64,000 nt of DNA from Bacteroidia bacterium (GTDB taxonomy: Bacteria > Bacteroidota > Bacteroidia > SpSt-205): positions 5,403 to 69,402 of the forward strand of contig JBCNVK010000004.1 in NCBI GenBank assembly GCA_039630245.1, read 5' to 3'. Shown here in pieces: positions 4,123-45,836 of the stretch. The translations under genes were made by a program, and so were the position numbers. The notes below the pieces were generated by a model. It was not told the DNA's origin and made no database searches. It worked only from the letters and a program-made list of their open reading frames with translations. Numbering within the stretch: the stretch's first letter is position 1; each line of letters starts with the position of its first letter.

Positions 4123-4471
4123 GACGCTTGAGCTTGAGGGCTTTACCTACCCGACCCCGCATGTAAAAGAGACGGGCTCGACGGGTGCGATTGGGCCGTA
4201 ATACTTCCACCTTCAGAAGAAAAGGAGAATGCAGCGGCACAATCCGTTCTACCCCTATCCCGCCGGATACCTTACGCACGGTTACGGTTTCGCTAATCCC
4301 TCTCCCTCGGCGCTGAATGACCATGCCCTCAAAAACCTGAATGCGTTCCTTGCCGCCTTCCACAATCCGAAGGTGTAGCCGAACCGTATCCCCAGCTCGG
4401 AAGGAGGGTAAATCAGCCTTATGGTAAGGCGCATTTATAAGGTACTCCACCTCCCGCAAAAGATGGCTCAT
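4112..4471 (-). CDS. rplS: 50S ribosomal protein L19
   Basis: The 119-aa translation shows the typical L19 core ([51 protein letters not shown]). Confidence 0.92.
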
Positions 4472-4475
4472 GCCG

Positions 4476-4483
4476 CAAAGGTA
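4476..4483 (-). promoter_or_regulatory. Bacteroidota sigma-A -7 element TACCTTTG, 4 nt upstream of the rplS ATG. It is embedded in a perfect 8-bp/4-nt-loop inverted repeat (4475-4494).
   Basis: Minus-strand read ...TACCTTTGcggcATG. The same motif-plus-spacer architecture recurs at many starts in this window. Confidence 0.6.
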
Positions 4484-13778: not shown

Positions 13779-13786
13779 TACCTTTG
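13779..13786 (+). promoter_or_regulatory. TACCTTTG -7 element, 4 nt upstream of the valS ATG
   Basis: TTTACCTTTGccttATG. Confidence 0.6.
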
Positions 13787-13790
13787 CCTT

Positions 13791-16400
13791 ATGGAGAAAA
13801 ACTATACGGCCTTGCCGGTGGAAGCTCGCTGGCAAGCCGTGTGGGAAAGTCATAACCTCTACCGAAGCCTTCCCGATAACCGGCCAGCCTACGCTATCGT
13901 TATGCCGCCTCCTAATGTAACCGGCATCCTTCACATAGGCCATGTACTCAACAATACCATCCAGGATGTGCTGGCGCGCTACTACCGCCTCAAGGGCTAC
14001 AACGTCTGCTGGGTACCCGGTACGGATCACGCCTCCATCGCCACCGAAGCTAAGGTAGTAGCTCGCCTGGCGCAGGCGGGCTTAGACAAGCGCCAGCTGG
14101 GCCGAGAAAAGTTTCTGGAAAAAGCCTGGGAATGGACGCATGAGCATGGACAGATCATCGTTACGCAGCTCAAACGCTTGGGCGTGAGCGCCGACTGGAG
14201 CCGCTACCGCTTCACCTTAGACCCGCCTCTCTACCGCGCCGTACTGATGGCTTTCGTGCGCCTCTACCACGATGGGCTAATCTACCGTGGCAAGCGCCTC
14301 ATCCACTGGGACCCTGTAGCCCTCACGGCCCTCTCCGATGAAGAAGTCCTTTACAAAGAGCGCTCGGATAACCTTTACTATGTGCGTTACCCTTTGGAAG
14401 GGGGAGGCTACCTCGTGGTAGCCACCGTACGCCCTGAAACTATCCTTGCGGATGTGGCGGTAGCGGTACATCCAGCCGATGAACGTTACCAAGGCCTTAT
14501 AGGCCGGCGTGTGCGAGTGCCCCTTACAGACCGCTGGGTACCTATTATCGCCGATGAGGCCGTCGATCCAGAATTTGGTACAGGCTGCCTGAAGGTTACC
14601 CCTGCCCATGACCCAAAGGACTATGAAATAGGCCAGCGTCATGGGCTTCCGATTATAGACATTTTCACACCTGAGGCCTACCTCTCTGAGGCAGCGGGTA
14701 GGTATGCGGGCCTTTCCCGTGAAGCCGCACGCACCCGGCTGGTAGAAGACTTAGCTCGGGAGGGCCTGCTGGAGAAAGTAGTCCCCTATACCCACAAAGT
14801 AGGCCATTCCGAGCGTACGGATGCAATTGTAGAGCCGCGCCTTTCCGAGCAGTGGTTTGTACGGATGAAGCCTTTAGCCGAGCTGGCTTTACGCGCTGTG
14901 GAAAAGGGCGAAATCACGCTTGTGCCCGATCGCTTCTTAGGCACTTACCAGCACTGGCTAGAGCATGTGCGCGACTGGTGTATCTCGCGCCAGCTCTGGT
15001 GGGGCCATCGTATCCCGGCTTGGTATGCGCCGGATGGGAAGGTATTCGTGGCGCTTACGGTGGAAGAGGCCCAGGCCCAAGCCCAAGCGGCTGGCTATGA
15101 CCCCACCACTCTTCGCCAAGACGAGGATGTCTTAGATACCTGGTTTTCCTCTTGGCTCTGGCCGCTCAGCGTGTTTGATTTCTTTGAAGACCCCAAAAAC
15201 CCCGATTTCGCCTACTACTATCCCACGCAGGTCCTCGTTACGGCGCCAGAGATCCTCTTCTTCTGGGTAGCGCGCATGATTATGGCGGGGTACTACTTTG
15301 CCGGGAGAAAGCCTTTCTCGGTAGTGTACCTTCACGGAATTGTACGCGATAGGCAGCGCCGCAAAATGAGCAAATCCTTGGGCAATTCGCCTGACCCACT
15401 GGAGCTTATGGACCGCTATGGTACGGATGCCCTACGGCTGGGCATCCTCCTAAGTGCCCCCGCGGGTAATGACCTTCTTTTTGACGAGAGCCTCTGCGAA
15501 CAGGGACGCAACTTCTGCAATAAGCTGTGGAATAGCTTTCGCCTGCTGGCGAGCTGGGGGGAAAAAGGCAGTGAAGACTCCCCCACCCCGCTTCAGCAAA
15601 TGGCTGTTGCTTGGTTTTCGGCGCGCCTGCGCCAGCTTCAGGGTCAGGTAGAGACGCTCTTAGCCAGCTACCGCTTCTATGAAGCGGCTCATGAGCTGTA
15701 CCACGGGATTTGGGAGGACTTTTGCAGCTGGTATTTGGAGGCCCTCAAGCCCGCTCCTCCGAAAAGCCTCTTAGCCGAAGTAGAAGCCCAGGCCCTTCGG
15801 CTTCTCCAGCTTCTTCACCCCTTCGTGCCTTTTATTACGGAGGAGCTATGGCACCAGCGCACGGGTGCACCTCCTGAGGAAAGTATCGGTTTCACCGCCC
15901 TACCCGCAGCCGAGCCGCTAACCCCAGAGGAAACGGCACTCCTTACGCAAGTAGCACACGCTCAGCGCGTAATTTCGCGCCTGCGCGGCCTGCGGCAAAC
16001 CTTTGGGCTCTCGGGCCCGCTTCAGGTAGCCGTGCAAACCCCTTCACCCCAACCGAATGCCCTCGTCGCTGAATGGGCCCACCATTTCCTGCCCATCCAG
16101 AGCTGGACGTATGTGGATAAGCCTCTCCCTCAAGCGCTGCGTTTCGTTCTCCAGCAGGAAGCCTACTACATCCGCCTAGAGGGGACGCCCACCGAATGGA
16201 CTACCCTCCGAGAAAAGCTTCAAAAAGAGCTGGCCCAAGTAGAAAATTTTCTCCGCACAATTGAGGCGAAACTTTCTAATCCGGCCTTCCTCAGCCGGGC
16301 AGCACCCGAAATCGTAGCACGCGAAGAGAAAAAGTATGCCGATGTGCGGGCGCGCCACCAGCTTTTGTTAGAGCAATTAGCCGTAATGGAAAGCCTATGA
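13791..16400 (+). CDS. valS: Valine--tRNA ligase
   Basis: Class-I HIGH (PPPNVTGILHIGH) and KMSKS (KMSKSLGN) motifs. 869 aa with a C-terminal coiled coil. Confidence 0.95.
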   Translation: MEKNYTALPVEARWQAVWESHNLYRSLPDNRPAYAIVMPPPNVTGILHIGHVLNNTIQDVLARYYRLKGYNVCWVPGTDHASIATEAKVVARLAQAGLDKRQLGREKFLEKAWEWTHEHGQIIVTQLKRLGVSADWSRYRFTLDPPLYRAVLMAFVRLYHDGLIYRGKRLIHWDPVALTALSDEEVLYKERSDNLYYVRYPLEGGGYLVVATVRPETILADVAVAVHPADERYQGLIGRRVRVPLTDRWVPIIADEAVDPEFGTGCLKVTPAHDPKDYEIGQRHGLPIIDIFTPEAYLSEAAGRYAGLSREAARTRLVEDLAREGLLEKVVPYTHKVGHSERTDAIVEPRLSEQWFVRMKPLAELALRAVEKGEITLVPDRFLGTYQHWLEHVRDWCISRQLWWGHRIPAWYAPDGKVFVALTVEEAQAQAQAAGYDPTTLRQDEDVLDTWFSSWLWPLSVFDFFEDPKNPDFAYYYPTQVLVTAPEILFFWVARMIMAGYYFAGRKPFSVVYLHGIVRDRQRRKMSKSLGNSPDPLELMDRYGTDALRLGILLSAPAGNDLLFDESLCEQGRNFCNKLWNSFRLLASWGEKGSEDSPTPLQQMAVAWFSARLRQLQGQVETLLASYRFYEAAHELYHGIWEDFCSWYLEALKPAPPKSLLAEVEAQALRLLQLLHPFVPFITEELWHQRTGAPPEESIGFTALPAAEPLTPEETALLTQVAHAQRVISRLRGLRQTFGLSGPLQVAVQTPSPQPNALVAEWAHHFLPIQSWTYVDKPLPQALRFVLQQEAYYIRLEGTPTEWTTLREKLQKELAQVENFLRTIEAKLSNPAFLSRAAPEIVAREEKKYADVRARHQLLLEQLAVMESL

Positions 16401-17629: not shown

Positions 17630-19060
17630 TCAGCGGTCGTCGCGCGTAAAGCCTATCGTCTGGTCATCCCGAAAGATAAACGCCCCTCCGCTGCCAAAGC
17701 GCTGAAAGGCCTCGGTCTCGCCCGTAGCGGCTGCCCGCGCCCGCAAAAGAAAAGCCCGCCAATTCCGATTCTGAAGCTCCCCAATCTTATTGGAGTGAAG
17801 CAGCGGATATTCGCCCGTGATTAGGTCAGGATCGTAGAAAACAAAGATAACCGAGCCCTGCGCCCCAATCTGGTTATACACCCATATTTGGTAGGGGTAT
17901 TTGTCCGGCTCGTTGAAATAGAACTGCATGTCGTTGGGTGGGCCGTACTGAATGAATACCCGTCCGCGGTCGGTACGCCAGCCTGGACGGATAGAGGATT
18001 TGAAATGCTGCCGAGCATACTCAAAACGCTGCCGAAATTCTTGAAAGGAAATGCTACCTGGCCGCGCAGCCCGTTTCTTCCAAAAGGCTACAAAGTAGAC
18101 CTTCTTTTCGGCAAAGCTCTTTAGGGCTTTTTGGAAGCTGCGCTCGGTGGGCGTGGCTAAGTAATAGAGACCTTCTAAATACTCATCCAGCAGCTTTTCG
18201 GGAAAGCCATACTGGGTATCGTATTCGGCCTCGCTGGCTTGGGGCAGAGGCTCTCGGGTAGTGAAAAGGTGGAAACGGCGGTACCAGCTTGCAAGCACTT
18301 CACCCGTATTACGGCACAGCTCTATTTGCGTTAGGTAGATGCCAGAAGGCAGCTGAAGCACAGGAAGGTGAAAGCTAAAAGCCTCAAAGGGTCCAGGTCG
18401 GCGAGGTCGCCGCTGAAAGGTAAAACCCGGTACTTCCAAGCCAGTCTGGGCATCTATTAGACGCAATCGCAGATAGTAGGGCTCGCCGCCCGTCAGGCTA
18501 TCCACTCGGTAGATTTCCCCATATAACCGTAGCGTGTCGGGGTCGGTGAAAAACCCATTAGTTATCCACAGGTCTAAGGTCAGTCCGTGGCGCTCATACC
18601 CTTTAGCGGTGGAAGTCTGCCCCCCGCGCGCATACAGGAGATCGCTGTAGCAAAAGCCAGCTGACTTGGCTGGTACTTCAAACTGCGTAACCGCCTTAAC
18701 CTTCTGCGGACGCGGCTGCTGGTAGGGGTCCAGGCCTTCTACTTCTAAGGTATAGACCCCTTGAGGCAGGCGCAGCCGCCGCACATCCACATACAGCCGC
18801 TGGCGCTCCGGCGCCAGCGTATCTCGCACCGAGGGAAGAACGAAGCGAAATTTATCCGCATACACCGCCTCATCCAGCTGATTCTTGAGAAGGAGGAGAA
18901 AATCTACCTGAGCGCTGTAGCCGTCGCCTTGCGGCACGTAGCGGACGCTTGTAGCATCCACCCCTAAGAAAAGCTCCACATAGGGCTCTCCTTCTAAGGT
19001 AAAGAAGCGCACGGGCTCTATGTAAAAGAGAACCTGAAGCCAGAAGAGGGCCGCTAGCAT
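17630..19060 (-). CDS. GWxTD domain-containing protein
   Basis: Contains GWRTDRGRVFIQYGPPNDMQFY. The N-terminus is hydrophobic. Confidence 0.8.
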   Translation of the reverse strand: MLAALFWLQVLFYIEPVRFFTLEGEPYVELFLGVDATSVRYVPQGDGYSAQVDFLLLLKNQLDEAVYADKFRFVLPSVRDTLAPERQRLYVDVRRLRLPQGVYTLEVEGLDPYQQPRPQKVKAVTQFEVPAKSAGFCYSDLLYARGGQTSTAKGYERHGLTLDLWITNGFFTDPDTLRLYGEIYRVDSLTGGEPYYLRLRLIDAQTGLEVPGFTFQRRPRRPGPFEAFSFHLPVLQLPSGIYLTQIELCRNTGEVLASWYRRFHLFTTREPLPQASEAEYDTQYGFPEKLLDEYLEGLYYLATPTERSFQKALKSFAEKKVYFVAFWKKRAARPGSISFQEFRQRFEYARQHFKSSIRPGWRTDRGRVFIQYGPPNDMQFYFNEPDKYPYQIWVYNQIGAQGSVIFVFYDPDLITGEYPLLHSNKIGELQNRNWRAFLLRARAAATGETEAFQRFGSGGAFIFRDDQTIGFTRDDR

Positions 19061-19073
19061 CTAACAAAGATAC

Positions 19074-19910
19074 CTAACGGTTTGCTTTACGCCACAGCCA
19101 GAAGCCCAAGCCGAAGGTGAGGAGCCATACGCCCAATTCGGCCCAGCTCATAGTCGCACGCCAGCCGAGGAGGGCATGGAAAATTCCTCCCAACCAGCCT
19201 TTATGGTGTAGAAGAGGGTAGTAAAGCCCTTCGTGGAAAGTGTAAGTCCAGGCATGGGCCGCAGGAGGCGTGGAAGTGGGGGGGAAAAGCCTCCAAGCCT
19301 TAGCTTCCTCTAAGGCCTCGGCCCACGCCCAGCGGCTGGAAAGAAGCTCTAAAAGTTCATGGGCGCCGTAGGCGGCCATCCCCGCCGCCATAAGAAGCAG
19401 CAAAACCGAGGTAATACGGAAAAATGGCCGCAGAGGCACGCGCCGACCATAGAGGAAAAGGGAAAGGCCTAACAGTACCGCTACCAAAAGCCCAGCAATC
19501 CCGCCTACCCAGGAGAGACTTTGCTGCATTTGCCATAGGGCGCGCAGGAAAATCGCCGTCTCTAAGCCTTCTCGTAGCACGGCGAAGAGGCTGGTGCCGA
19601 AAAGGAGCCAGCCTTCCGTAACCTGAGCCGCCGTCTGCAGCTCTTGGCGAAGGGTACCACTGCGCCTCTGCATCCACACCACCATGGAAATAAGAAGTAC
19701 CGCCGCACTAAAGGAGAGGGCTATCTCCCACACCACGTGGGCAGAGGCTACTCTATGTAAGACCCAGGCTCCCGCTATACTCAATACGACCGCGCTACCC
19801 ACACCCGCCCATATAAAGCCGCGCAGCGCTGGCGCCGCATACCGAGCTAAGATGCCTACTACAAGCGCCGCCTCCAGCGTCTCGCGAAACGTCACAAACC
19901 CCTCACCCAT
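19074..19910 (-). CDS. FTR1-family high-affinity iron permease (EfeU-like)
   Basis: Two REGLE-type motifs (RETLEAAL; LREGLETAIFL) in a 7-TM protein. Confidence 0.75.
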   Translation of the reverse strand: MGEGFVTFRETLEAALVVGILARYAAPALRGFIWAGVGSAVVLSIAGAWVLHRVASAHVVWEIALSFSAAVLLISMVVWMQRRSGTLRQELQTAAQVTEGWLLFGTSLFAVLREGLETAIFLRALWQMQQSLSWVGGIAGLLVAVLLGLSLFLYGRRVPLRPFFRITSVLLLLMAAGMAAYGAHELLELLSSRWAWAEALEEAKAWRLFPPTSTPPAAHAWTYTFHEGLYYPLLHHKGWLGGIFHALLGWRATMSWAELGVWLLTFGLGFWLWRKANR

Positions 19911-19943
19911 CCAGCAAAGGTAGCTATTTGGAATGAATACAAA

Positions 19944-21992
19944 CTACGGCCTAGGGCCGATACGCTCCAGAAAACGCTCTATCTCTAAAAAGACCTGGTA
20001 GCGATACCCGCCCAGGCCGTGATTCTGGTTGGGGAAGATGCGCCATTCCACGGGGGCATCGGGCTGCGTGCGCCACAGCCGCTCTAAAAAGCGGTAGGTG
20101 TGCTGCACATGCACATTATCGTCAGCCTCGCCATGGATAAGAAGCAGAGGTAGGCGCAAGGACTTATCGGACGGGGGAAGGGCGGTGCGGAGATAGCCCT
20201 CGGGATTAGCGCTAAGAAGGTCCATGAAGCGTTCGGTATAGGCCGTGTCGTAGAGGCGCCAGTCGGTCACGGGAGCTACGGCTATCGCCGCACGCAAGCC
20301 TTCGGGCGCTAGGAAGGCCAGCCGTATCGCTAGGTAGCCGCCATAGCTCCAGCCAAAAGCCACTACCGGCCCGCCGTAAGGCCGGGACGTAAGCCAGCGA
20401 ACAAAGTCGGCCAGCTCCTGAGCTTCCGCCTCACCCAGCCGCCGGTAGGTAGCGAAGCGCTCCGCCGAATAGAGCGCCGTGCCTACCCCATCCATACAGG
20501 CCACCAAAAAGCCCTTTTGGACTAGGTAAGCGTACCAGGCGAGGTAAGTCCCGCCGAAGGCCTCCTTGACCTGCTGCGAACCTGGACCCCCATAAAAAGT
20601 AAGTAGAATTGGATGCGAGCGGGTGGAGTCCCACTGTTCGGGAATTACCAGATAGGCCCAGCGCCGTTTCCCCGCCGAAGTGGTAAACTCCATAAAACGC
20701 ACTTGAATGGGAAGCTTTTGGCGGCGCAGCTCCGCGTTTAGGTCTGGCAGAGGAAGGCGCTGCATGGGCTGCCGAGCGGCGCGCAGCTCCTCCTGCGGCG
20801 GCGTTAGGAAGGTACCATACCGCAAGTGGAGCACTTCCCCCATTAGCTCACCCTCGGCCCAGCCCTCTGGGGGCGTAAGCCACTCTACGCGCCCTTTAGG
20901 GAGATGCAGGTAGCCCACGCGCTGGTCCTTAGGCGTCTGCCCCGCCGCATGAAAGAATACCTTATCCCCCACAAACCCAATTAGGCTTCGCAGGCCGGCT
21001 ACGGTATAGGTGCCTAAGCGCCGGCCCTTATAGTCCAGCCGCCACAGCTCTACGGCCGGGCGTCCCGCCGCCCGATAAATTAGCTCTGGCCTGTCCTCGG
21101 CAAAAACTACAAGCTGCCGGTCATCCCACGAGAAATACCCCACCGTAGAATCAGAGAAAAAGGGGGCTATCCCCTCTTCTGGCGTGTAGCGGTAAAGTAC
21201 AAAGCGATTCTGGGCACGGACCAGATGGGTAAAGTAGAGCGCATCACCCATGGGGCTCCAGCTAAACCACGGTATGTAGCCTCCCGTGGTATCCTGCCAG
21301 AGGTACTCTAAGGTGCGAGTGGGAAGGTGAAGCAGGCATAGGGCCACTTTAGGGTTAGGCTCACCTACGCGCGGGTAGCTGATTTTCTGAAGGGCTGGGT
21401 AACCAGCGCCGTAAAATAGAAGCGGATAAGTAGGCAGCGCAGCCCCGTCTAGGAGCAGGAAGGCCACATAGGTGCCTGAGGGAGAAATCGCAAAGGCCTG
21501 TGTAAAGCTAAATTCCTCTTCGTATAGCCAGTCGGTTGTGCCGGCCTGTTTGGGAGCGGTGTAACGGGTGAGCGTATCCCAGGCTCCTTTGGTTAGGGTG
21601 TAGGCGTAGAGGTTATAGTCGTCGGCGGCGATGAGGGTGGCGCCATCTGGGGTAAAAGCGGCTTCCCGCCAGCGCTGGCCGGGTAAGCGGTAGGTTTGCT
21701 GGCCTTCCTGCCACACCAGCCTACCGGCGCTGGAGTGGCGAAAGCCGCGCTGAAGCTCCTCCCAGAAAAGCCAGCCGCGTCCAGCCGGATGGGGTAGCCA
21801 GCGATAGAGCGGCCGCGATCGGCCCAGCGTTTCCGGCCTGAGATTGGCGCCTACTTTTAGGAGCCAGCCGTCGGGCGCCTGCGCGTACCAGCCCCCCGAT
21901 CCCCGCACCCCCTCCCACTGCGCCGCATGATAGCCATACCGCTGCCAGATGCCTGCCAAATCCAAAACCTGAAGCCACCAGAAGCCCCACAT
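19944..21992 (-). CDS. S9-family serine peptidase (prolyl oligopeptidase/DPP-like) with an N-terminal beta-propeller
   Basis: Catalytic GWSYGGY nucleophile elbow. Asp/His are in the C-terminal alpha/beta-hydrolase domain (IHGEADDNVHVQH). Confidence 0.8.
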   Translation of the reverse strand: MWGFWWLQVLDLAGIWQRYGYHAAQWEGVRGSGGWYAQAPDGWLLKVGANLRPETLGRSRPLYRWLPHPAGRGWLFWEELQRGFRHSSAGRLVWQEGQQTYRLPGQRWREAAFTPDGATLIAADDYNLYAYTLTKGAWDTLTRYTAPKQAGTTDWLYEEEFSFTQAFAISPSGTYVAFLLLDGAALPTYPLLFYGAGYPALQKISYPRVGEPNPKVALCLLHLPTRTLEYLWQDTTGGYIPWFSWSPMGDALYFTHLVRAQNRFVLYRYTPEEGIAPFFSDSTVGYFSWDDRQLVVFAEDRPELIYRAAGRPAVELWRLDYKGRRLGTYTVAGLRSLIGFVGDKVFFHAAGQTPKDQRVGYLHLPKGRVEWLTPPEGWAEGELMGEVLHLRYGTFLTPPQEELRAARQPMQRLPLPDLNAELRRQKLPIQVRFMEFTTSAGKRRWAYLVIPEQWDSTRSHPILLTFYGGPGSQQVKEAFGGTYLAWYAYLVQKGFLVACMDGVGTALYSAERFATYRRLGEAEAQELADFVRWLTSRPYGGPVVAFGWSYGGYLAIRLAFLAPEGLRAAIAVAPVTDWRLYDTAYTERFMDLLSANPEGYLRTALPPSDKSLRLPLLLIHGEADDNVHVQHTYRFLERLWRTQPDAPVEWRIFPNQNHGLGGYRYQVFLEIERFLERIGPRP

Positions 21993-22100
21993 GCTCCAAA
22001 AGTACGGCTCAACCCCCTTTTTCCACAGCTTAAACCAGTTTTCCTAACCAATTCTGCCTACTTTCCTTGGCTGATGCGAAGTAGTTCATACCTTTGCTAA

Positions 22101-24131
22101 ATGCGAGGGATACAGGCGGCTGGGCTATTCTGCATGGGCCTCCTGCTGGCTCAGCAGCATCGTCCCGAGTCCGACTGCAGCGGCGCTATACGAATATGTC
22201 AGGATGTCTATTCCTACCCTGGCGGCATCCCCTCTTACGGCACGGTGCAGGAGATAACTCCAGGAGGTAGAGGCACCTGCCTCACCGGAGGAGAACACCA
22301 GACAGCCTGGTTCATTTTCACCGTCCAGCGGAGTGGGACGATGGGATTTGTTATCTGCCCTGCAGCGGCTTGGGGTGGACGCGACTATGATTTTGCCCTT
22401 TGGGATGTTACCGACCTTCCGAATCCTTGTAGTATCTTTCAGGGCTCGGGCAATCTTTCACTCCTTCCCATCCGGTGTAACTTCTCTGGCGACCAGGGTG
22501 AAACCTCCTGCTGCGGTGGCGTTACCTGTGCCAATCCAGGCCTTACGGGGCTAGATCATACTGATGTGGATCCCGGTCCTATTTCTATTCCCGCAGGTGG
22601 AGACCCCGTCATGCCTGGCCTACCGGTTCAGCGCGGGCGTACCTATCTGCTGCTCGTAGATAACTTCAGCAATAATAATGTCGGCTTCACGATAAGGTTT
22701 TATGGCACGGCGGAGTATATTGACAACCGACCGCCGCAGATGGACAGCGTGCTTTTCACCTGCAGCCCTCTCTATGAGAACCAGCTACCCCTGCTGGAGC
22801 GCTTCCGCGTCCGGTTCAATGAGGTGATAAACCCCACCACGGTAGCCCAAGATGGGAGTGATTTTAGGCTTTTAGAGGAAAGTACGGGTAATGTGATAAC
22901 TTTCACGCGTGCAGTGCCTATCAATCCGCCTCAGACCCGCTTCGTAGACCTTGTACCGGCTCAGCCGCTGCGGCCAGCCCAGCGCTATAAGCTTTTCATA
23001 AGCTATCAGGGACAGAATGCAAGTGATGGAAACACTATCATAGATGGCTGTGGTAATGCCATACCTCCTGGGGGTGGGACTACCGCAGGCGATACCTTAG
23101 AATTTGAGACGCCGGACACGATGGTGGTAGAAGTTACGACGCAGCCGCCGCGCTGCGCGCGCACGGCCACTGGCGTAATCCAAGTAAATGTAGGCGGAAG
23201 CAGTGGGCCGTACGAGTATGCCTTAGTGACAGGGAATAGCGGCGCGCCGCCGGCTACAGGTTGGGGGACTACCGCCAGCTGGAACGACCGTCCCGCGGGC
23301 ACTTACACGATATGGATACGCAATAGGTTTGGTTGCGTCCAGCGTCGCATAGTGGATCTGGCCGATCCCCAGCCCGTGCGCCTTACCGTGGTAGACTCGC
23401 AATATGTAGCCTGTGGCGGTGAGCCTATCGGCTTTGTGCGCAGCCGCGCCGAAGGTGGTGCACCCCCCTACTTCTATGGCCTTTCCTCTGCACCGGGGGA
23501 TACCATCTGGCAGCGCGACAGCCTCTTCCAGAATTTAGGCGCTGGGCAGTATCAGCTTTTTGCGCGCGACCAGTTTGGCTGCCTAAGCCGCCCCTATAGC
23601 TTCCGGGTGGATATTTACCCTTCCGTACGGCTTGTCTCGGTAGATGCGGACTCCGCCTACTGCAATGAAGCGGATGGTCGCCTGCGCGTAGAGGCTACAG
23701 GCGGCGTAGGCGCACCCTATACCTATACCCTGAATGGTATCTCTAATACTACAGGCGACTTTCCTGGTCTAGCCGCTGGCCGCTATCGCATCACTGTCCA
23801 GAGCGGCCCCTGCCAAGGCGATAGCCTCCTTGAAGTAGGACGCTTGCCCTGCATATTTATAAATGTTCCAACTGCCTTTACTCCTAATGGCGACGGAATC
23901 AATGACCAGTGGGTGATTAGGGGACGAGGCATTCAACGCATAGAAGCGACCGTATGGGACCGCTGGGGCAACCAAATCTGGAGTAATAACGGCGAAATGA
24001 CGCGCTTCTGGGATGGCACTACTAAGAGTGGCCAGCCTGTCCCAGAAGGCGTCTATACTTTCATCATACGTGTGGTGGATGTAAGAGGTCAAGAGACGAT
24101 TCGGACGGGCACGGTTACGGTTGTCCGTTAG
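22101..24131 (+). CDS. T9SS type-B C-terminal sorting domain (gliding-motility-associated CTD) surface protein
   Basis: Signal peptide. The C-terminal block is FTPNGDGINDQWVI ... the CHU_C/type-B CTD. Internal Ig/SprB-like repeats are also present. Confidence 0.8.
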   Translation: MRGIQAAGLFCMGLLLAQQHRPESDCSGAIRICQDVYSYPGGIPSYGTVQEITPGGRGTCLTGGEHQTAWFIFTVQRSGTMGFVICPAAAWGGRDYDFALWDVTDLPNPCSIFQGSGNLSLLPIRCNFSGDQGETSCCGGVTCANPGLTGLDHTDVDPGPISIPAGGDPVMPGLPVQRGRTYLLLVDNFSNNNVGFTIRFYGTAEYIDNRPPQMDSVLFTCSPLYENQLPLLERFRVRFNEVINPTTVAQDGSDFRLLEESTGNVITFTRAVPINPPQTRFVDLVPAQPLRPAQRYKLFISYQGQNASDGNTIIDGCGNAIPPGGGTTAGDTLEFETPDTMVVEVTTQPPRCARTATGVIQVNVGGSSGPYEYALVTGNSGAPPATGWGTTASWNDRPAGTYTIWIRNRFGCVQRRIVDLADPQPVRLTVVDSQYVACGGEPIGFVRSRAEGGAPPYFYGLSSAPGDTIWQRDSLFQNLGAGQYQLFARDQFGCLSRPYSFRVDIYPSVRLVSVDADSAYCNEADGRLRVEATGGVGAPYTYTLNGISNTTGDFPGLAAGRYRITVQSGPCQGDSLLEVGRLPCIFINVPTAFTPNGDGINDQWVIRGRGIQRIEATVWDRWGNQIWSNNGEMTRFWDGTTKSGQPVPEGVYTFIIRVVDVRGQETIRTGTVTVVR

Positions 24132-24151
24132 GCTTTCTACCTTTGCGGCCG

Positions 24152-24448
24152 ATGGCAGCACCAGCGAAAAAGAAAAAACGCACGCGCTCGCGCACGGCTC
24201 TAAGACGCCAGCGCAAAAGCGAGCGGCGCCGTCTGCGGAATTTAGCCTGGAAAGCCCGTTATAGGCAAGCCCTGCGAGCCCTGCGGAACGAAACCGACCC
24301 GGCACGCCTTCCCGAACGTCTGCGGGCGGTACATTCCGTTTTAGATCGCCTAGGGCGGCGACGCATCTTCCACCCGAATAAAGTCGGTCGGCTCAAAGCG
24401 CGGCTGGCCCGTTGGGTAGCGGCTCGCCTAAGCGGAAAGCCCTCCTAA
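24152..24448 (+). CDS. Small Arg/Lys-rich basic protein of unknown function (98 aa from the ATG). The listed TTG start at 24143 is unlikely.
   Basis: An exact TACCTTTG promoter motif sits at 24138-24145 with a 6-nt spacer to the ATG. The ORF fills the gap between the flanking genes and ends 3 nt before the POT transporter start. Confidence 0.45.
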   Translation: MAAPAKKKKRTRSRTALRRQRKSERRRLRNLAWKARYRQALRALRNETDPARLPERLRAVHSVLDRLGRRRIFHPNKVGRLKARLARWVAARLSGKPS

Positions 24449-24451
24449 AGC

Positions 24452-25912
24452 GTGGCTAAACCGCTACTGGGGCGACACCCGCCCGGCCTCTATGTGCTCT
24501 TTTTTTCTGAAATGTGGGAGCGGTTTAGCTACTATGGCATGCGGGCCATCTTGGTCTTGTACCTCACCCTTTACCTCCCCTATACCCGTCAGGCCGCCTT
24601 AGAGATCTATGGACTTTATACTGGGCTAGTTTATCTTACCCCGCTTCTGGGGGGCTTTTTGGCGGACCGCTGGCTGGGCTATCGGGGCACCGTCTTAGCG
24701 GGCGCTTTCCTCATGATGGTAGGCCACTTCGCCATGGCCTTCCCTAACCTCCTCTTTCCCGCCCTCGCCCTCCTCATTCTCGGAAATGGCCTCTTCAAGC
24801 CAAATATCTCTACAATTGTAGGATCTCTTTACCTTTTAGGCGATCCCCGGCGCGATGCGGCCTTTACCATTTTTTACATGGGCATCAACTTAGGCGCTTT
24901 TTTTTCGCCGCTGGTGTGCGGCACCCTAGCGGATAGGTTTACACCGCACTGGGGATTCGGGGCGGCTGGGGTTGGGATGCTGATTAGCCTAATAATCTTT
25001 TTAGGTGGCCTTCGCACCCTTCGGCCAGCCGTAGGGAGCTGGCAGCCGCTCAGCCAGTCAGAAATAGGTCGGATCGCCTTAGTTACGGTCCTCGGAATAG
25101 GCGTGGCATTTTCGGGGGGACTTTTGGCACCCGTTATAGGGCGCAGTTTTCTGTCCCTCCTCTATAAGTGGCTGGTTCTGAGTGCTTTGGCAGCTACCCT
25201 CCTCTACCTGAGCCTGCGGCTTCGACACCAAGCCGAATGGCAACGAACCGCCGCCATCCTCCTCTTAGCTGGCTTTACGGCTATTTTCTGGATGGGTTTT
25301 GAACAGGCCGGCGGCACCTTGAACCTTTTCGCCCAGGAAAAAACCCAGCGCGAATTTCACCTAGCTGGGCGGCACTGGGAATTTCCTGCGCCTTACTTTC
25401 AGTCGCTCAATCCCCTCTTGATATTCATTCTGGCGCCGCTCTTTTCTCTCTTGTGGGTGCGTTTAGCGGCTCAGGGCCGAGAACCTTCTACGCCTACCAA
25501 AATGGGCCTGGGTCTTTTGCTGCTTTCGGCGGGATTCTTAGTGATGAGCTTAGCCGAGTGGCGCGCGCACCTTACTAAGGTAAGCCCGCTCTGGCTAGTA
25601 GGCGTATACCTTCTCCATACGTTGGGGGAGCTGTGCCTCTCACCCGTAGGGCTGTCCATGGTCACGCGGGTAGCACCACCTGCAGTAGCTGCGCTTATGA
25701 TGGGGGTATGGTTTTTGGCTTCCTCATTTGGTAATTACATGGCCGGGGTTTCCGAGGAGGTTCTTCAGCGGCGGGCTTTACCTCTGTATCCCACACTTAT
25801 GGGGATAAGCGGAGGGGCTGGGCTGATGCTCCTACTGGGCGCGCGCTGGATTCATCGCTGGATGACGGCGCCCCTGCCTTCGCCCGAGCTTACTGCGCAC
25901 CAGAAAGAATAA
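24452..25912 (+). CDS. POT/PTR2 family proton-dependent oligopeptide transporter
   Basis: PTR2 signature at the N-terminus (FFSEMWERFSYYGMRAILVLYL) and 12-14 TM helices. Confidence 0.85.
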   Translation: MAKPLLGRHPPGLYVLFFSEMWERFSYYGMRAILVLYLTLYLPYTRQAALEIYGLYTGLVYLTPLLGGFLADRWLGYRGTVLAGAFLMMVGHFAMAFPNLLFPALALLILGNGLFKPNISTIVGSLYLLGDPRRDAAFTIFYMGINLGAFFSPLVCGTLADRFTPHWGFGAAGVGMLISLIIFLGGLRTLRPAVGSWQPLSQSEIGRIALVTVLGIGVAFSGGLLAPVIGRSFLSLLYKWLVLSALAATLLYLSLRLRHQAEWQRTAAILLLAGFTAIFWMGFEQAGGTLNLFAQEKTQREFHLAGRHWEFPAPYFQSLNPLLIFILAPLFSLLWVRLAAQGREPSTPTKMGLGLLLLSAGFLVMSLAEWRAHLTKVSPLWLVGVYLLHTLGELCLSPVGLSMVTRVAPPAVAALMMGVWFLASSFGNYMAGVSEEVLQRRALPLYPTLMGISGGAGLMLLLGARWIHRWMTAPLPSPELTAHQKE

Positions 25913-31992: not shown

Positions 31993-33158
31993 TGCGCTTG
32001 GCCGTAATAGGTCCGCCGCGGGATGTGCATCTACGCCGGTGGGGAGAGGCGCTTCGGGCGGCGGGAGCCGAGGTGCTTTTCGTAGGGGTGGAGAAAGCCC
32101 CACCCGACCTAATTCCCTACCACTGTATAGGCCCTCCCGTAGAAAAGCCCAGCTTCTGGACTTTTTGGCAGCGCCGTCGGGCGCTCAGGGCTTTCCTAGT
32201 AGCGCAGCGCGTGGATTTGGCCCATCCCATTCATCTTACACCTTCAGGGGTGTGGGTGTGGCTTAGTGGCTTCCGCCCTTACCTGCCTTATGTGATGGGA
32301 GCGGACGTACTGGAGTATGGGCCTAGGCGACCGGCCTTAGGACGCAGCTGGAGCCTCCAGAGTGTGTCGCCCTCCCCTCTCCTTTACCTGCGCACCTTCC
32401 TGCGCCGGAAACTTATGCCACCGCTTTTACGGGCTACGCTAAGGCAGAGCCTAGCGGTAGCAGCCGATAACTACGAGCTTAGTTTTACATGCAAATTTTT
32501 TGTAAAAAGAAAAAAAATTATTGAACTCCCAGCTGGTATACGGGTGGTGGAGGGGGCGGCGCCTGAGCGGCGCGGCATTCTAGTAGGGCGCGGGACTACT
32601 TCCCTATACCAAGCGGACATTATTCTGGAGGGGGTGCGTCGCTACCTAGCGGAGGGGGGACGGCAGCCTATCTACTGGCTCAGGGGCCTCTACCCGCCCC
32701 ATCCTACTCTCCTGCGCCAAATCCGTCAAATAAGCCAGAAGTACGAAAATAGGTTTTATTTTTTTGAAAACATACTATCGCCGGCACGCCTTTGGCAGCT
32801 TTGGCAAGAGGTGGCAGCCTTTATCTCAGCCCCTGTGTATGACGGCTACAGCTACGCCGTAGCGGAAGGGCGCCTAGCTGGAAGCCTGCCAATTGTGAAC
32901 GCTATACCCGCCCATCTGGAAATTCTGACCCACGGCTATAACGCTTACATTGTAGAGCCTTTTACGGCGGTGCGTTTGGCTCAAGCCCTCCATGAAGTGG
33001 AGGAATGGCTAGCCGGTCCGCCCTTTTGGGCGGGTCCTAACGCCGAATGGGTGCGACGCTTCTCCGACTTAGCCCAGTCGGCCCGCTGGTTTCTCAGCTT
33101 TGTCCAAGAGAATTTACTACCTTTGCACAGGAACGGCGGGTATAGCTCAGGTGGTTAG
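31992..33158 (+). CDS. Glycosyltransferase (GT4-like). The 3' end overlaps tRNA-His by 24 nt.
   Basis: GT-B fold features with an EX7E-like region (AEGRLAGSLPIVNAIPAHLEILTHGYNAYIVEP). Confidence 0.55.
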   Translation: MRLAVIGPPRDVHLRRWGEALRAAGAEVLFVGVEKAPPDLIPYHCIGPPVEKPSFWTFWQRRRALRAFLVAQRVDLAHPIHLTPSGVWVWLSGFRPYLPYVMGADVLEYGPRRPALGRSWSLQSVSPSPLLYLRTFLRRKLMPPLLRATLRQSLAVAADNYELSFTCKFFVKRKKIIELPAGIRVVEGAAPERRGILVGRGTTSLYQADIILEGVRRYLAEGGRQPIYWLRGLYPPHPTLLRQIRQISQKYENRFYFFENILSPARLWQLWQEVAAFISAPVYDGYSYAVAEGRLAGSLPIVNAIPAHLEILTHGYNAYIVEPFTAVRLAQALHEVEEWLAGPPFWAGPNAEWVRRFSDLAQSARWFLSFVQENLLPLHRNGGYSSGG

Positions 33159-33211
33159 AGCGTCTGACTGTGGCTCAGAAGGTCGTCGGTTCGAATCCGA
33201 CTGCCCGCCCA
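33135..33211 (+). tRNA. trnH: tRNA-His (anticodon GTG) with the encoded G-1
   Basis: Manual fold of the 7-bp acceptor GCGGGTA/TGCCCGC. D arm GCTC-AGGTGGTTA-GAGC. Anticodon stem TCTGA/TCAGA with loop CTGTGGC. T arm GTCGG-TTCGAAT-CCGAC. Discriminator C73 and an extra 5' G-1, diagnostic of tRNA-His. Confidence 0.93.
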
Positions 33212-35933: not shown

Positions 35934-35966
35934 CCTGCGAAGGTAGAGAAAGGCTACCTTTGTGGC

Positions 35967-37655
35967 ATGGAGCTTTTCCTTTCAGCCGCACAACGAGCTG
36001 AGCTATGGACTAAGCACCAGCCCCGCCTTCTTGCTGCGCGCAAAGCTTGGCAGCAGCGCACCTTTTGGGCCGCCTACCCCGAAGACCCCAAAAGCTACCC
36101 TGAAACAGCGGCCGCTCAGGGCGAAGCCGACTTTCAAGCTCAACTCCAAAAGCCCTTCCAAAGGCTTCTGCAGGAAAGTTCTACTTGGCTTACCTCCGAT
36201 GAAGTTTCTCCCTATACGCAAGTGCCCTTAGGCATAAGCTACCCCCAACCTTCACCTGATCGCCTTATCCAAAAGGCTGAAGCCGCTTTAGCCGTATGGC
36301 GCTGGGTACCTTGGAATGAACGGCTAGGGGTTCTTATGGAAAGCTTAGAGCGATTTGCTGAGCGGTTCTTTGAGGTAGCGCACGCCACGCTTCACACGAC
36401 AGGGCAAGCCTGGATGATGGCCTTTCAGGCCTCTGGTCCCCATGCGGCAGACCGGGCCATGGAAGCCCTAGCCGTGGCCTACCACGAGCTAGAGGCCATT
36501 CCCCCCCACGTCCGATGGGAAAAAGAAGCTGGCCGCAGCCGCATCGTCATAGAGAAATACTTTTTCCCTCAGCCGGAGGGGATCTCGCTTCACATTGGTG
36601 TCTCTACTTTTCCGGTTTGGAATACTTTGCCGGGCCTTTATGCCAGCTTAGCGGTGGGCAGCCCGGTTATCCTTAAGCCGCATCCGCGCGCCATATACCC
36701 TATCGCTATTGTAGTAGCGGTGCTTCAGCAAACCTTTGCGGACTATGGTCTGCCGCCCGAGATCGTCCAGCTTGCTGTGGATACCGTGGCCGCCCCTATC
36801 ACGAAGCTGCTCGCCGAACACCCCGCCATACGAATTATAGATTACACGGGCGGGCCAGAATTTGGGGCCTACTTGGAAAGCCTTCCAGGTAAAATCACCT
36901 TTCTAGAAAAAGCCGGCGTAAATGGCGTGCTTTTAGAAAGCGTAACCGACCTAGAGGCCGTGGCAAAGAATATAGCCTTTTCAGCCAGCCTTTACAGCGG
37001 GCAGATGTGCACCGCTCCGCAAAATGTGTATATCCCCCGCACAGGTGTGCGAACGCCGCAAGGCGTAGTTTCGTATGAGACCGTTACGGAAACGCTGCAA
37101 AAGGCCGTAGACGATTTAGCCGGTCATCCTAAGGCTGCGCCAGCCATTTTGGGGGCTTTGCAAAATGCTGGGGTGGCGGAGCGCATTGCACGCCTAAGCC
37201 AGCAGGTGCAGGTGCGCCGGCCAGCGCAGGCTTACGCTCATCCGCAGTTTGCTCAGGCACGCACCCTTACGCCTTTAGTGGCTGAGGTGGCGCAGCCAGA
37301 GGCTCCCGCCGCTCTCCACGAGCACTTCGGCCCTCGGCTCCTCTTTATCCCTGTCCGCAGCGCCGAGGAAGGCGTAGAAGCGCTCTGCCAGCTGGCGCGC
37401 ACGAAAGGCATGCTGGCCTGTGCCCTCTACACAACCGACCCTAGCTTTCAGACCCGAGCGGTTCGCCAGCTTGCCGAGGCTGGCGTAGCCCCGAGCCTCA
37501 ACTTCCATGGCCAGGCCTTCATCAACCAGAGCGTAGCATTTTCGGATTTTCACGGGACGGGAGCTAACCCAGCTGGTAACGCCTCCTTCACTGATACCAG
37601 CTTTATTGTCAAGCGCTTCCGCTGGCTGCAGGTGCGCCACTGCCTGGCCGGTTAG
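35967..37655 (+). CDS. Aldehyde dehydrogenase family protein (PaaN/PaaZ-like)
   Basis: ALDH catalytic Cys context (GQMCTAPQNVYIP). About 560 aa, as in PaaN-type enzymes. Confidence 0.55.
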   Translation: MELFLSAAQRAELWTKHQPRLLAARKAWQQRTFWAAYPEDPKSYPETAAAQGEADFQAQLQKPFQRLLQESSTWLTSDEVSPYTQVPLGISYPQPSPDRLIQKAEAALAVWRWVPWNERLGVLMESLERFAERFFEVAHATLHTTGQAWMMAFQASGPHAADRAMEALAVAYHELEAIPPHVRWEKEAGRSRIVIEKYFFPQPEGISLHIGVSTFPVWNTLPGLYASLAVGSPVILKPHPRAIYPIAIVVAVLQQTFADYGLPPEIVQLAVDTVAAPITKLLAEHPAIRIIDYTGGPEFGAYLESLPGKITFLEKAGVNGVLLESVTDLEAVAKNIAFSASLYSGQMCTAPQNVYIPRTGVRTPQGVVSYETVTETLQKAVDDLAGHPKAAPAILGALQNAGVAERIARLSQQVQVRRPAQAYAHPQFAQARTLTPLVAEVAQPEAPAALHEHFGPRLLFIPVRSAEEGVEALCQLARTKGMLACALYTTDPSFQTRAVRQLAEAGVAPSLNFHGQAFINQSVAFSDFHGTGANPAGNASFTDTSFIVKRFRWLQVRHCLAG

Positions 37656-39246: not shown

Positions 39247-40644
39247 CTATAGAACGTAGGCATGCTGCGTGGCCTGCGCCAGCGAATCCAAGTAGGCCAT
39301 GTCCCCTACAAGGGTAAAAAGCGCCGTACTATCTCGGCCTAAGCTGGCGGCATAAAGGAGGCTACTCATAGGCCAGGCGTAGGCGGTCCACACGTAGTAG
39401 TTGAATTCGGGTGTTAGACTAGCAAAATGAAGTATGGCCTTGAATTCGCCCTCTTGGCGGCAGCTTTCTACCAGACGGCGGGTATGCCCTAGGCTTAGCT
39501 CGAGCGTGCGTGCGGAATAGCCAATCCGAAGCGCATTTTCCATTATCAGGCCTGCGGCTAAGAGGCTTCCTACTATTTTTTCGCTGGGCCTTTTCAGCCA
39601 GGCGAGGCCCGTGAAGGTGCCTACGCCGAGGGGGACGATTACGCCGAGCCCATAAAACTCCATGGCGGCGGGATGTTCGCCCTGCCAGAGGTAAATGGTG
39701 AGGTATAGCGCCGCTGCTAGGCTTGCGCTCACCACCGCTAAGAGGAGGCCCACCCCGCTCCAGCCATAACCTATGGGAAGGTAAAACCCTACTAGAGCTG
39801 TAACCATCAAGGTAAAGGGGTGATGGAAGGGGTAGAAATTCTTAAGATAGATACCCATGCGTGAGGCCCCAAAGCCTTGGCTGAAGAGTGTGCGAAGCTT
39901 AGTCAGGAGCTCACTCAGCGGCACGGCCTTCGTAGCTTCATAGCCGGTCAGAAATACAAAGTACTTCAGAGCGACTAAGGTGAGGCTCAAGCCTACTAGG
40001 CTAGCGCTGAGCCAGAGGTCTTTTCGGCGGCTGAGAAAAAAGACCAGCAAAGCTCCTTCTAAAAGTACAAAACCGCTTATAGGGTGCGCAAAGAAGAGCC
40101 CAGCGATGGCTAAGCTAAGCCCCAGCGCTAAGTAAAAGTAGCGCACACGTGAGGTCCTTTGAAGGGCCATAAGCCAAATCGCCGTACTACTCCCAGCTAA
40201 AGAGAGAGCCAGCGTAGCGGAATTTGTACTGTAAAACACATCGCGCGAAAGAAGATACGGTAGAGTAGGCAGAAAAGCCAGGCATTTTTCTTCCAAAGCA
40301 TCCGCCAGTCTATACACCACTATGAATCCCAAGAGCCCGACCAGAAGGTAGCCCAAGGAAAATAGAGCTAAGACGGCGTGGAAAGGCAGGCCCAGCTTTA
40401 CGCCTAGCCAGGTAGGGCCATGCGCTAGAAGATGCGCATACCGCTGGTGGTAAATAGCTATATCTCCTAACCCTACAAGGCGATAAAAAAGGTAAGCCCA
40501 GTCGTACCAAAAGGCCCTTTCCTGAGCAAAGACCAGAGAAAGAAGGGCAAAATAGATCCATACTCCCCAGCCTAGGTGCAGGAGAAATTTCTGAAAAATC
40601 CTACTCAGATCTTCTTGGGCTGGTGCAGAAAGGGGGAATCGCAT
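39247..40644 (-). CDS. Polytopic membrane protein (possible GT39/83-like glycosyltransferase or DUF2079). Start moved to ATG 40644.
   Basis: About 12 TM helices. A TATCTTTG motif lies 6 nt upstream of the ATG on the minus strand. Confidence 0.5.
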   Translation of the reverse strand: MRFPLSAPAQEDLSRIFQKFLLHLGWGVWIYFALLSLVFAQERAFWYDWAYLFYRLVGLGDIAIYHQRYAHLLAHGPTWLGVKLGLPFHAVLALFSLGYLLVGLLGFIVVYRLADALEEKCLAFLPTLPYLLSRDVFYSTNSATLALSLAGSSTAIWLMALQRTSRVRYFYLALGLSLAIAGLFFAHPISGFVLLEGALLVFFLSRRKDLWLSASLVGLSLTLVALKYFVFLTGYEATKAVPLSELLTKLRTLFSQGFGASRMGIYLKNFYPFHHPFTLMVTALVGFYLPIGYGWSGVGLLLAVVSASLAAALYLTIYLWQGEHPAAMEFYGLGVIVPLGVGTFTGLAWLKRPSEKIVGSLLAAGLIMENALRIGYSARTLELSLGHTRRLVESCRQEGEFKAILHFASLTPEFNYYVWTAYAWPMSSLLYAASLGRDSTALFTLVGDMAYLDSLAQATQHAYVL

Positions 40645-40701
40645 CGCCGCCAAAGATAGCGGGAAGCTATAAGGGATAGGCGTTTCACCGTATTTTTGGC
40701 C

Positions 40702-45824: not shown

Positions 45825-45832
45825 TACCTTTG
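45825..45832 (+). promoter_or_regulatory. TACCTTTG -7 element, 4 nt upstream of the carB GTG. The divergent lptB element TATTTTTG (minus strand, plus-strand 45794-45801) is 3 nt upstream of its ATG.
   Basis: A 46-bp divergent intergenic region holds both motifs. Confidence 0.55.
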
Positions 45833-45836
45833 TAGC

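Follow-up and report, generated by a model that had tools for sequence, protein, structure and literature searches.

A predicted bS20 ribosomal protein gene with a putative Bacteroidota -7 promoter box against its start codon and a conserved POT transporter gene downstream

A very basic protein of 98 residues, encoded directly upstream of a POT-family peptide transporter gene in a genome of the Bacteroidota, is ribosomal protein bS20 as judged from its sequence, and its gene is rpsT. In the 64-kb stretch of DNA analysed here (hereafter the window), the rpsT start codon lies against what reads as a -7 box of the housekeeping sigma factor of this phylum. It is very probable, in our estimate, that these elements belong to one arrangement, in which rpsT is expressed from the Bacteroidota -7 box as a leaderless or near-leaderless mRNA that would also carry the POT gene, the translation of the second gene being coupled to that of the first. 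The protein itself is already known. It is a universal ribosomal protein, and it is correctly named by annotation pipelines in related metagenome-assembled genomes (MAGs).

Results

Locus anatomy

The features of the locus are listed in Table 1. On the forward strand the order is ...GTCCGTTAGGCTTTC-TACCTTTG-CGGCCG-ATGGCAGCACCAGCGAAAAAGAAAAAACGC..., and the layout given in the original prediction is present in the sequence, namely TACCTTTG at 24138-24145, a 6-nt spacer, an ATG at 24152, and an ORF that ends (TAA, 24446-24448) 3 nt before the start of the POT gene (GTG, 24452). The DNA is 56% G+C and contains spurious long ORFs on both strands, for example at 23769-24305 on the minus strand.

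Table 1. Features of the rpsT-POT locus, in window coordinates.
Feature	Position	Strand	Basis
-7 promoter box TACCTTTG (putative)	24138-24145	+	Exact match to TAnnTTTG/TAHHTTTG
G+C-rich 6-nt spacer CGGCCG, with predicted transcription start site (24150-24152) inside or adjoining	24146-24151	+	Published box-to-start-site spacing
rpsT (predicted ribosomal protein bS20), 98 aa plus TAA stop at 24446-24448	24152-24448	+	PF01649, TIGR00029, predicted fold, dN/dS
rpsT-POT junction AGC, 3 nt	24449-24451	+	Sequence, ORF list
POT/PTR2 proton-coupled oligopeptide transporter, 486 aa, GTG start, putative second cistron	24452-25912	+	PF00854, TIGR00924
CHU_C/SprB type IX-secreted protein gene, upstream neighbour	22101-24131	+	Ends 6 nt ahead of TACCTTTG

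Two further observations concern this region. A terminator-like hairpin with a T-run is found on the minus strand at 24179-24196, inside rpsT. It is built from a Lys-codon A-run (AAAAAGAAAAAA) beside the Arg/Thr/Ser codons CGCACGCGCTCGCGCACG, and is probably incidental to the coding sequence; in the mRNA it would read as an A-rich tract and then a G+C hairpin, between 16 and 45 nt from the 5′ end. At the other end of the locus, the POT gene (plus strand, end 25912) and a convergent HisKA/HATPase sensor kinase gene (minus strand, end 25832) overlap at their 3′ ends by 81 nt (25832-25912). This overlap, unusually long for a convergent pair, is also present in the independent gene calls on the public contig (L001).

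Identity of the protein as bS20

The predicted product begins MAAPAKKKKRTRSRTALRRQRK and contains 25 Arg and 9 Lys residues, which at 34.7% of the chain agrees with the original description of an extremely basic 98-residue protein of about one third Arg and Lys; its pI is about 12. bS20, a very basic protein of three helices, joins the 30S subunit early in assembly by binding the 5′ domain and helix 44 of 16S rRNA, and richness in Arg and Lys is normal for ribosomal proteins that bind rRNA. Both the size of the product and its basicity fit this family (about 80-105 aa, very basic).

The product matches the Pfam family PF01649 at 52.9 bits, against a gathering cut-off of 29.5, and the NCBIfam equivalog TIGR00029 at 48.7 bits, against a cut-off of 33. 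A search of all PDB sequences returned 19 distinct significant matches, all of them bS20. The top match is 7jil_y, the bS20 of the F. johnsoniae 70S ribosome (E 6e-11), in which residues 13-90 of the query align with residues 4-81 of the 83-residue chain. Twenty homologues were collected from a large protein database, and all carry PF01649; 19 of them are 63-77% identical to the query and 99-101 aa long, and those that have a name, mostly from MAGs labelled “Bacteroidia bacterium,” are called 30S ribosomal protein S20. Across the homologue alignment the N-terminus MAAP(A/Q)KKKK is conserved and 21 columns are invariant. The same start, ATG 24152, was also chosen by an independent gene call on this contig in the public assembly. 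Membership of the 30S subunit is predicted from sequence and model.

An AlphaFold2 model, for which the input was an alignment with 13 homologues, has a mean pLDDT of 90.1 and contains three helices (residues 14-46, 53-69, and 75-94), so that the S20 three-helix bundle is predicted with high confidence. When the model was compared with the PDB by Foldseek, the best 50 matches were bS20 chains of solved ribosomes, without exception, the first being that of P. gingivalis (9i5v_d; rmsd 1.3 Å over 74 columns, target-normalised TM 0.86). The predicted bundle speaks against the earlier statement that the protein has no hydrophobic core signature. The suggestion of a ribosome-associated small protein was right in kind but missed the bS20 identity to which the PF01649, TIGR00029, PDB, and Foldseek matches all point.

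In its profile matches, which span nearly the full domain, and in its three-helix bundle and basicity, the predicted protein resembles bS20 from F. johnsoniae (7JIL chain y), P. gingivalis (9I5V chain d), and T. thermophilus (1FJG chain T), and the (I/F)HxNK...R.K motif in helix 3 is common to the family and the rpsT product. Its length of 98 aa falls inside the range of bS20 in solved structures (77-106 aa). The F. johnsoniae protein, of 83 aa, is shorter at both ends: the window protein extends beyond it by about 9-10 Lys-rich residues at the N-terminus (MAAPAKKKK) and by about 8 residues at the C-terminus. The N-terminal extension lies within known variation, since T. thermophilus bS20 (106 aa) is similar, its residue 3 aligning to query residue 7.

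These additions to the two ends of the protein could be taken as a mark of an S20-like paralogue that binds nucleic acid or regulates outside the ribosome, in a genome that encodes its true ribosomal S20 elsewhere. The patterns used to scan genomes were, moreover, specific to this S20 subfamily. We nevertheless regard a paralogue as very unlikely. The protein passes a profile of equivalog level, its orthologues, where NCBI records name them, are called 30S ribosomal protein S20, a comparable N-terminal extension is present in T. thermophilus bS20 from solved ribosomes, and the scan with subfamily-specific patterns found one locus per clade genome. Strong purifying selection and a strong consensus promoter, both described below, also fit a core ribosomal protein.

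Purifying selection and the reading frame

To the rpsT sequence of the window we aligned, by codon, those of 13 species-level genomes of the clade (14 sequences, 91 pairs). Against the closest genome (L008, MAG SKYB87; 96% protein identity) dN/dS is 0.033, with dN of 0.022 and dS of 0.65. For remoter genomes dS approaches or exceeds saturation, and those comparisons that still allow a dN/dS value give 0.06-0.19. The median pN/pS over the 91 pairs rises from 0.27 in frame to 1.25 and 1.88 when the frame is shifted, and the variable columns number 62, 42, and 93 at the three codon positions. The frame is open, at 96-102 aa, in 14 of 14 genomes, each of which has 1-8 stops in each of the other two frames. 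rpsT is under strong purifying selection.

The original prediction had named conservation of the amino-acid sequence in relatives as the check that would separate a protein from a long 5′ UTR. Frame and protein sequence are kept, at dN/dS of 0.03-0.19, which excludes the 5′-UTR outcome. An untranslated 5′ leader of the POT mRNA containing a chance frame might be entertained in DNA of this G+C content, with its spurious long ORFs on both strands, but the stops in the alternative frames of all 14 genomes, the codon-position periodicity of the variation, and the significant family matches leave this reading with a negligible probability. Conservation of the frame, the amino-acid sequence, and dN/dS together refute both the 5′-UTR and the chance-ORF interpretations.

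A regulatory leader peptide, or uORF, controlling POT was another function offered for the ORF, and its position immediately upstream of the transporter gene, with a 3-nt gap, would suit such a role. At 98 aa, however, the product far exceeds known leader peptides and belongs to a universal family with a defined fold; conservation of the amino-acid sequence extends over its full length, with 21 invariant columns, and neither an attenuator nor a terminator follows the ORF, whose junction with POT is only 3 nt. The leader-peptide proposal is refuted by membership of the bS20 family and by the selection acting on the sequence (dN/dS 0.03-0.19), and we hold it to be exceedingly improbable. Rfam models, run over the full window, matched neither a ribosomal-protein leader nor any other RNA element near rpsT; their sole match is a tRNA at 33136-33209.

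The listed ORF begins, as the original prediction pointed out, at a TTG within the promoter motif (24143). This codon was rejected as the start, as the two codons between TTG and ATG are not conserved while MAAP is conserved. Because the TTG is inside the -7 box, upstream of any start from it, it would not be part of a transcript made from the rpsT promoter.

The promoter at rpsT

By its sequence, TACCTTTG at 24138-24145 is a -7 box of the Bacteroidota housekeeping sigma factor (sigma-A, sigma-ABfr). In F. johnsoniae the invariant positions of the -7 element are T-12, A-11, T-8, T-7, T-6, and G-5, and G is avoided at both variable positions (PMC6847099). Set beside the sigma-ABfr promoter pattern (-33 TTTG/-7 TAnnTTTG), the rpsT box is a perfect match with no G at the variable positions (TAHHTTTG). 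It differs from the sigma-ABfr promoters that have been studied in that the box abuts the start codon and there is no clear -33 element: a TTTG or TTG is expected about 19 nt upstream of the box, and the sole TTG there is at 24121-24123, 14 nt away. The -33 element is also weak in the F. johnsoniae transcriptome data (PMC6847099). A scan for sigma-70 promoters gave nothing relevant on the plus strand, as expected for Bacteroidota.

The exact box is strongly enriched in the window, where TACCTTTG occurs 16 times compared with 1.74 +/- 1.21 in shuffled sequences (an excess of about 9-fold), and the general form TAnnTTTG occurs 52 times compared with 26.8 +/- 4.6. A TAnnTTTG box (in TACC, TATC, or TAAC variants) is found at the orthologous position in all 14 clade genomes, followed in every one by a G+C-rich spacer of exactly 6 nt and then by ATGGCAGCACC. 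The spacer itself varies (CGGCCG, CGCCCC, CCGCCC, CGGGCT, CGCTTC, CGGCTC, CCGACG, CGCCTC, CCCGCC, CGGCCT). The DNA farther upstream of the box is unrelated among the 14 loci, and the upstream neighbour differs as well: most relatives have a divergently oriented RNase E/G gene there, and the window and SKYB87 have the CHU_C gene. This retention of box, spacer, and ATG in all 14 genomes, against changing upstream sequence and a changing neighbour, makes a good comparative case that rpsT has a functional promoter of its own, and the promoter and ATG start put forward originally gain support from all 14 related genomes.

In most relatives (L002-L006), a second -7 box on the opposite strand (CAAAGGTA) lies about 30-60 nt upstream of rpsT and about 24 nt from the rpsT box. 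This box stands 8 nt before the start of the divergent RNase E/G gene, forming a compact back-to-back promoter pair. In the window and in SKYB87 the pair is replaced by the 3′ end of the CHU_C/SprB gene.

Probable promoters of F. johnsoniae have 4-5 nt between the box and the transcription start site (PMC6847099), and the F. psychrophilum box is likewise placed at -12 to -5 (PMC9723704). Spacing of this kind places the predicted start of rpsT transcription at 24150-24151, which would give a leader of 1-2 nt; should RNA polymerase prefer the only nearby purine, the start would fall on 24152, the A of the ATG. With the box occupying -12 to -5, the rpsT mRNA would be leaderless or nearly so (0-2 nt). 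The rpsT spacer of 6 nt, against a mode of 4 nt elsewhere in the window, suggests that this mRNA may carry a leader of 1-2 nt instead of being strictly leaderless. The invariant length of the spacer could reflect conservation of such a leader or of a shifted start site, and a discriminator-like role for it is speculation.

The promoter had been called stand-alone, which is loosely correct, but the box begins only 6 nt past the stop codon of the upstream gene, and its layout is the general gene-start design of this organism, described below. Read-through transcripts into rpsT are possible in the window genome, since the CHU_C gene ends so close to the box, without a terminator.

Linkage of rpsT and POT

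The product of the downstream gene matches TIGR00924 at 347.8 bits (cut-off 130.2), with residues 8-471 on model positions 7-475, and PF00854 at 207.8 bits. The start of the TIGR00924 alignment at residue 8 and model position 7 indicates that GTG 24452 is the real POT start.

A scan of the genome contigs with a single S20 sequence gave no matches, and a scan with the S20 alignment gave 36 loci. POT lies directly downstream of rpsT in all 14 clade genomes and in none of the 22 remoter S20 loci in which rpsT could be located (labelled WOR-3, Thermotogota, Patescibacteria, and others). In 13 of the 14 clade genomes the first usable POT start falls within -4 to +9 nt of the rpsT stop, the exception being L019, at 21 nt; the two genes are 3 nt apart in the window and share an ATGA overlap in L020. 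The POT start codon is GTG or TTG in 12 of the 14.

Between the rpsT ATG and the POT start, an exact -7 box is found in none of the 14 loci, and in the window there is no box with one mismatch either. There is no Shine-Dalgarno-like element before the POT start in the window and none that is conserved over the 14 loci, the predicted anti-Shine-Dalgarno duplex energies before POT being mostly weaker than -4 kcal/mol. A terminator scan found no terminator-like site on the plus strand at the junction. POT thus lacks a promoter box, a separating terminator, and a Shine-Dalgarno sequence of its own, so that the rpsT promoter is the most likely source of its transcription, and its translation is most likely coupled to that of rpsT. 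A single transcript from this promoter would cover both genes, and ribosomes terminating on rpsT would re-initiate a few nucleotides downstream at the POT GTG. The co-transcription suggested originally on the strength of the 3-nt gap is supported by conservation of the gene pair in all 14 genomes.

The two genes could instead be adjacent but separately expressed, POT being served by a non-consensus promoter inside rpsT or by an alternative sigma factor, and their close spacing being a matter of genome compaction. In a few relatives there are indeed -7-like boxes with one mismatch inside rpsT, the gap in L019 is 21 nt, and rpsT of E. coli is monocistronic (PMC10931766). We think separate expression unlikely, given the lack of an exact box before POT in any of the 14 loci and of a one-mismatch box in the window, the junction without a terminator, and the maintenance of 13 of 14 junctions at -4 to +9 nt despite saturated synonymous sites and differing upstream neighbours. 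A shared, translationally coupled transcript remains the preferred reading.

Past POT, relatives carry, among others, genes for arginase, an M1 aminopeptidase, and a member of the asparaginase family, and a DPP-IV-type S9 peptidase gene is found nearby in the window. Together these genes give the neighbourhood a flavour of peptide utilisation. No relevant report of an rpsT-POT operon came from a literature search.

The same protein in E. coli is encoded by an rpsT that, as here, lies apart from the large ribosomal-protein clusters and has its own promoter. E. coli rpsT is monocistronic and leadered, with a UUG start thought to allow autoregulation (PMC10931766). Here, by comparison, the start codon is AUG, the leader would be no longer than 2 nt, and a transporter gene follows 3 nt after. 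The 5′ leader implicated in autoregulation in E. coli (PMC10931766) would have no counterpart in this organism.

Boxes next to start codons across the window

A -7 box 3-8 nt before an in-frame start codon is found for 17 of the 56 putative genes of the window, where fewer than one would be expected at a motif density of 4e-4 per nt. The spacers are of 3 nt (two genes), 4 nt (eight), 5 nt (two), 6 nt (two), and 8 nt (three). Box-start sites are found on the plus strand at, for example, 13779-13793, 22089-22103, 35955-35969, and 45825-45839, and on the minus strand at 4469-4483, 19058-19072, 19908-19922, and 21990-22004. Among the genes with this layout, the N-terminus is pinned by Pfam matches in those for ValRS (start 13791), L19 (4471, minus strand), CarB (45837, a GTG), and LepA (54959, minus strand). 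A spacer of 4 nt would put +1 on the A of the ATG, so that truly leaderless mRNAs are predicted for such genes.

The possibility that a G+C-rich spacer of 6 nt is a hallmark of translation genes was considered and rejected, L19 and ValRS having spacers of 4 nt and LepA one of 8 nt. One other such spacer occurs in the window, before the start at 40644 on the minus strand, whose protein has no Pfam match. This gene is a member of a divergent pair (39247-40702) in which each gene has a -7 box against its start: the 465-aa protein without a Pfam match (ATG 40644, minus strand) has the 6-nt spacer GCGGCG, like rpsT, and an AsmA-like protein of 1013 aa (ATG 40702, plus strand) has a spacer of 3 nt. 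Ahead of the tRNA at 33136-33209 (plus strand) there is a copy of TACCTTTG (33118-33125), 10 nt from the mature 5′ end, so that RNase P would have a very short 5′ leader to remove.

Leaderless mRNAs with the same fixed, short distance between box and start at the first genes of operons, and without Shine-Dalgarno sequences, are known from Actinobacteria and Deinococcus-Thermus (group C of GeneMarkS-2). The box found here, however, is the Bacteroidota TAnnTTTG and not the Pribnow TANNNT of group C. In the Bacteroidota, published transcriptomes report few leaderless mRNAs: 3.7% of 5′ UTRs are shorter than 10 nt in B. thetaiotaomicron (published transcriptome), 5.5% are leaderless in F. psychrophilum (PMC9723704), and 87% of leaders exceed 10 nt in F. 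johnsoniae (PMC6847099). In these three species most transcripts carry about 20-30 nt of leader, and those with a very short leader or none amount to about 4-6%. [quoted passage not shown] Set against these reports, the organism of the window looks leaderless-rich and atypical for its phylum. The pattern occurs in about 6 of 46 genes in the 6-kb loci of the clade, rpsT excluded, compared with 7 of 140 in unrelated loci, a sample too small and noisy to support a claim of leaderless expression for the whole clade.

The distant S20 genes of a further group of MAGs (loci L021-L040 and L044, with the labels WOR-3, Caldipriscus, and “Thermotogota”) have a TATAAT or TAAAAT box 7-8 nt before the ATG. 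The start codon of the next gene touches or overlaps the S20 stop codon (TGATG); in L044, the sole locus of the group for which genes have been called, that next gene is NifU-like. An rpsT that is the first cistron of a tight operon of leaderless type thus appears to recur in an unrelated lineage. The “Thermotogota” labels of some of these MAGs may be wrong, as their S20 proteins resemble those of WOR-3.

Discussion

A wider interpretation can be offered tentatively, and we consider it possible but doubtful in its entirety: rpsT-POT would be a conserved, coupled bicistron of leaderless type, its 6-nt spacer might act as a discriminator, and the lineage as a whole would be rich in leaderless mRNAs. 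If so, the coupled bicistron would hard-wire peptide import to ribosome synthesis. An extended G+C-rich discriminator is a feature of the rRNA promoters of E. coli, and a discriminator-like spacer could place the operon under growth-rate or stringent control. The same interpretation would make this a lineage of Bacteroidota in which leaderless mRNAs are common and not rare.

A ribosomal-protein gene in a tight bicistron with a nutrient transporter gene is a modest curiosity. The protein being a known one, the remaining value of the locus is in its gene-expression architecture, as a clean example, conserved in 14 genomes, of a putative -7 box set against a start codon. If transcript mapping confirms the predicted starts, there would be a leaderless-rich lineage within a phylum regarded as leadered but lacking Shine-Dalgarno sequences, and the rpsT-POT pair, if confirmed, would provide a simple system for the study of Shine-Dalgarno-independent re-initiation.
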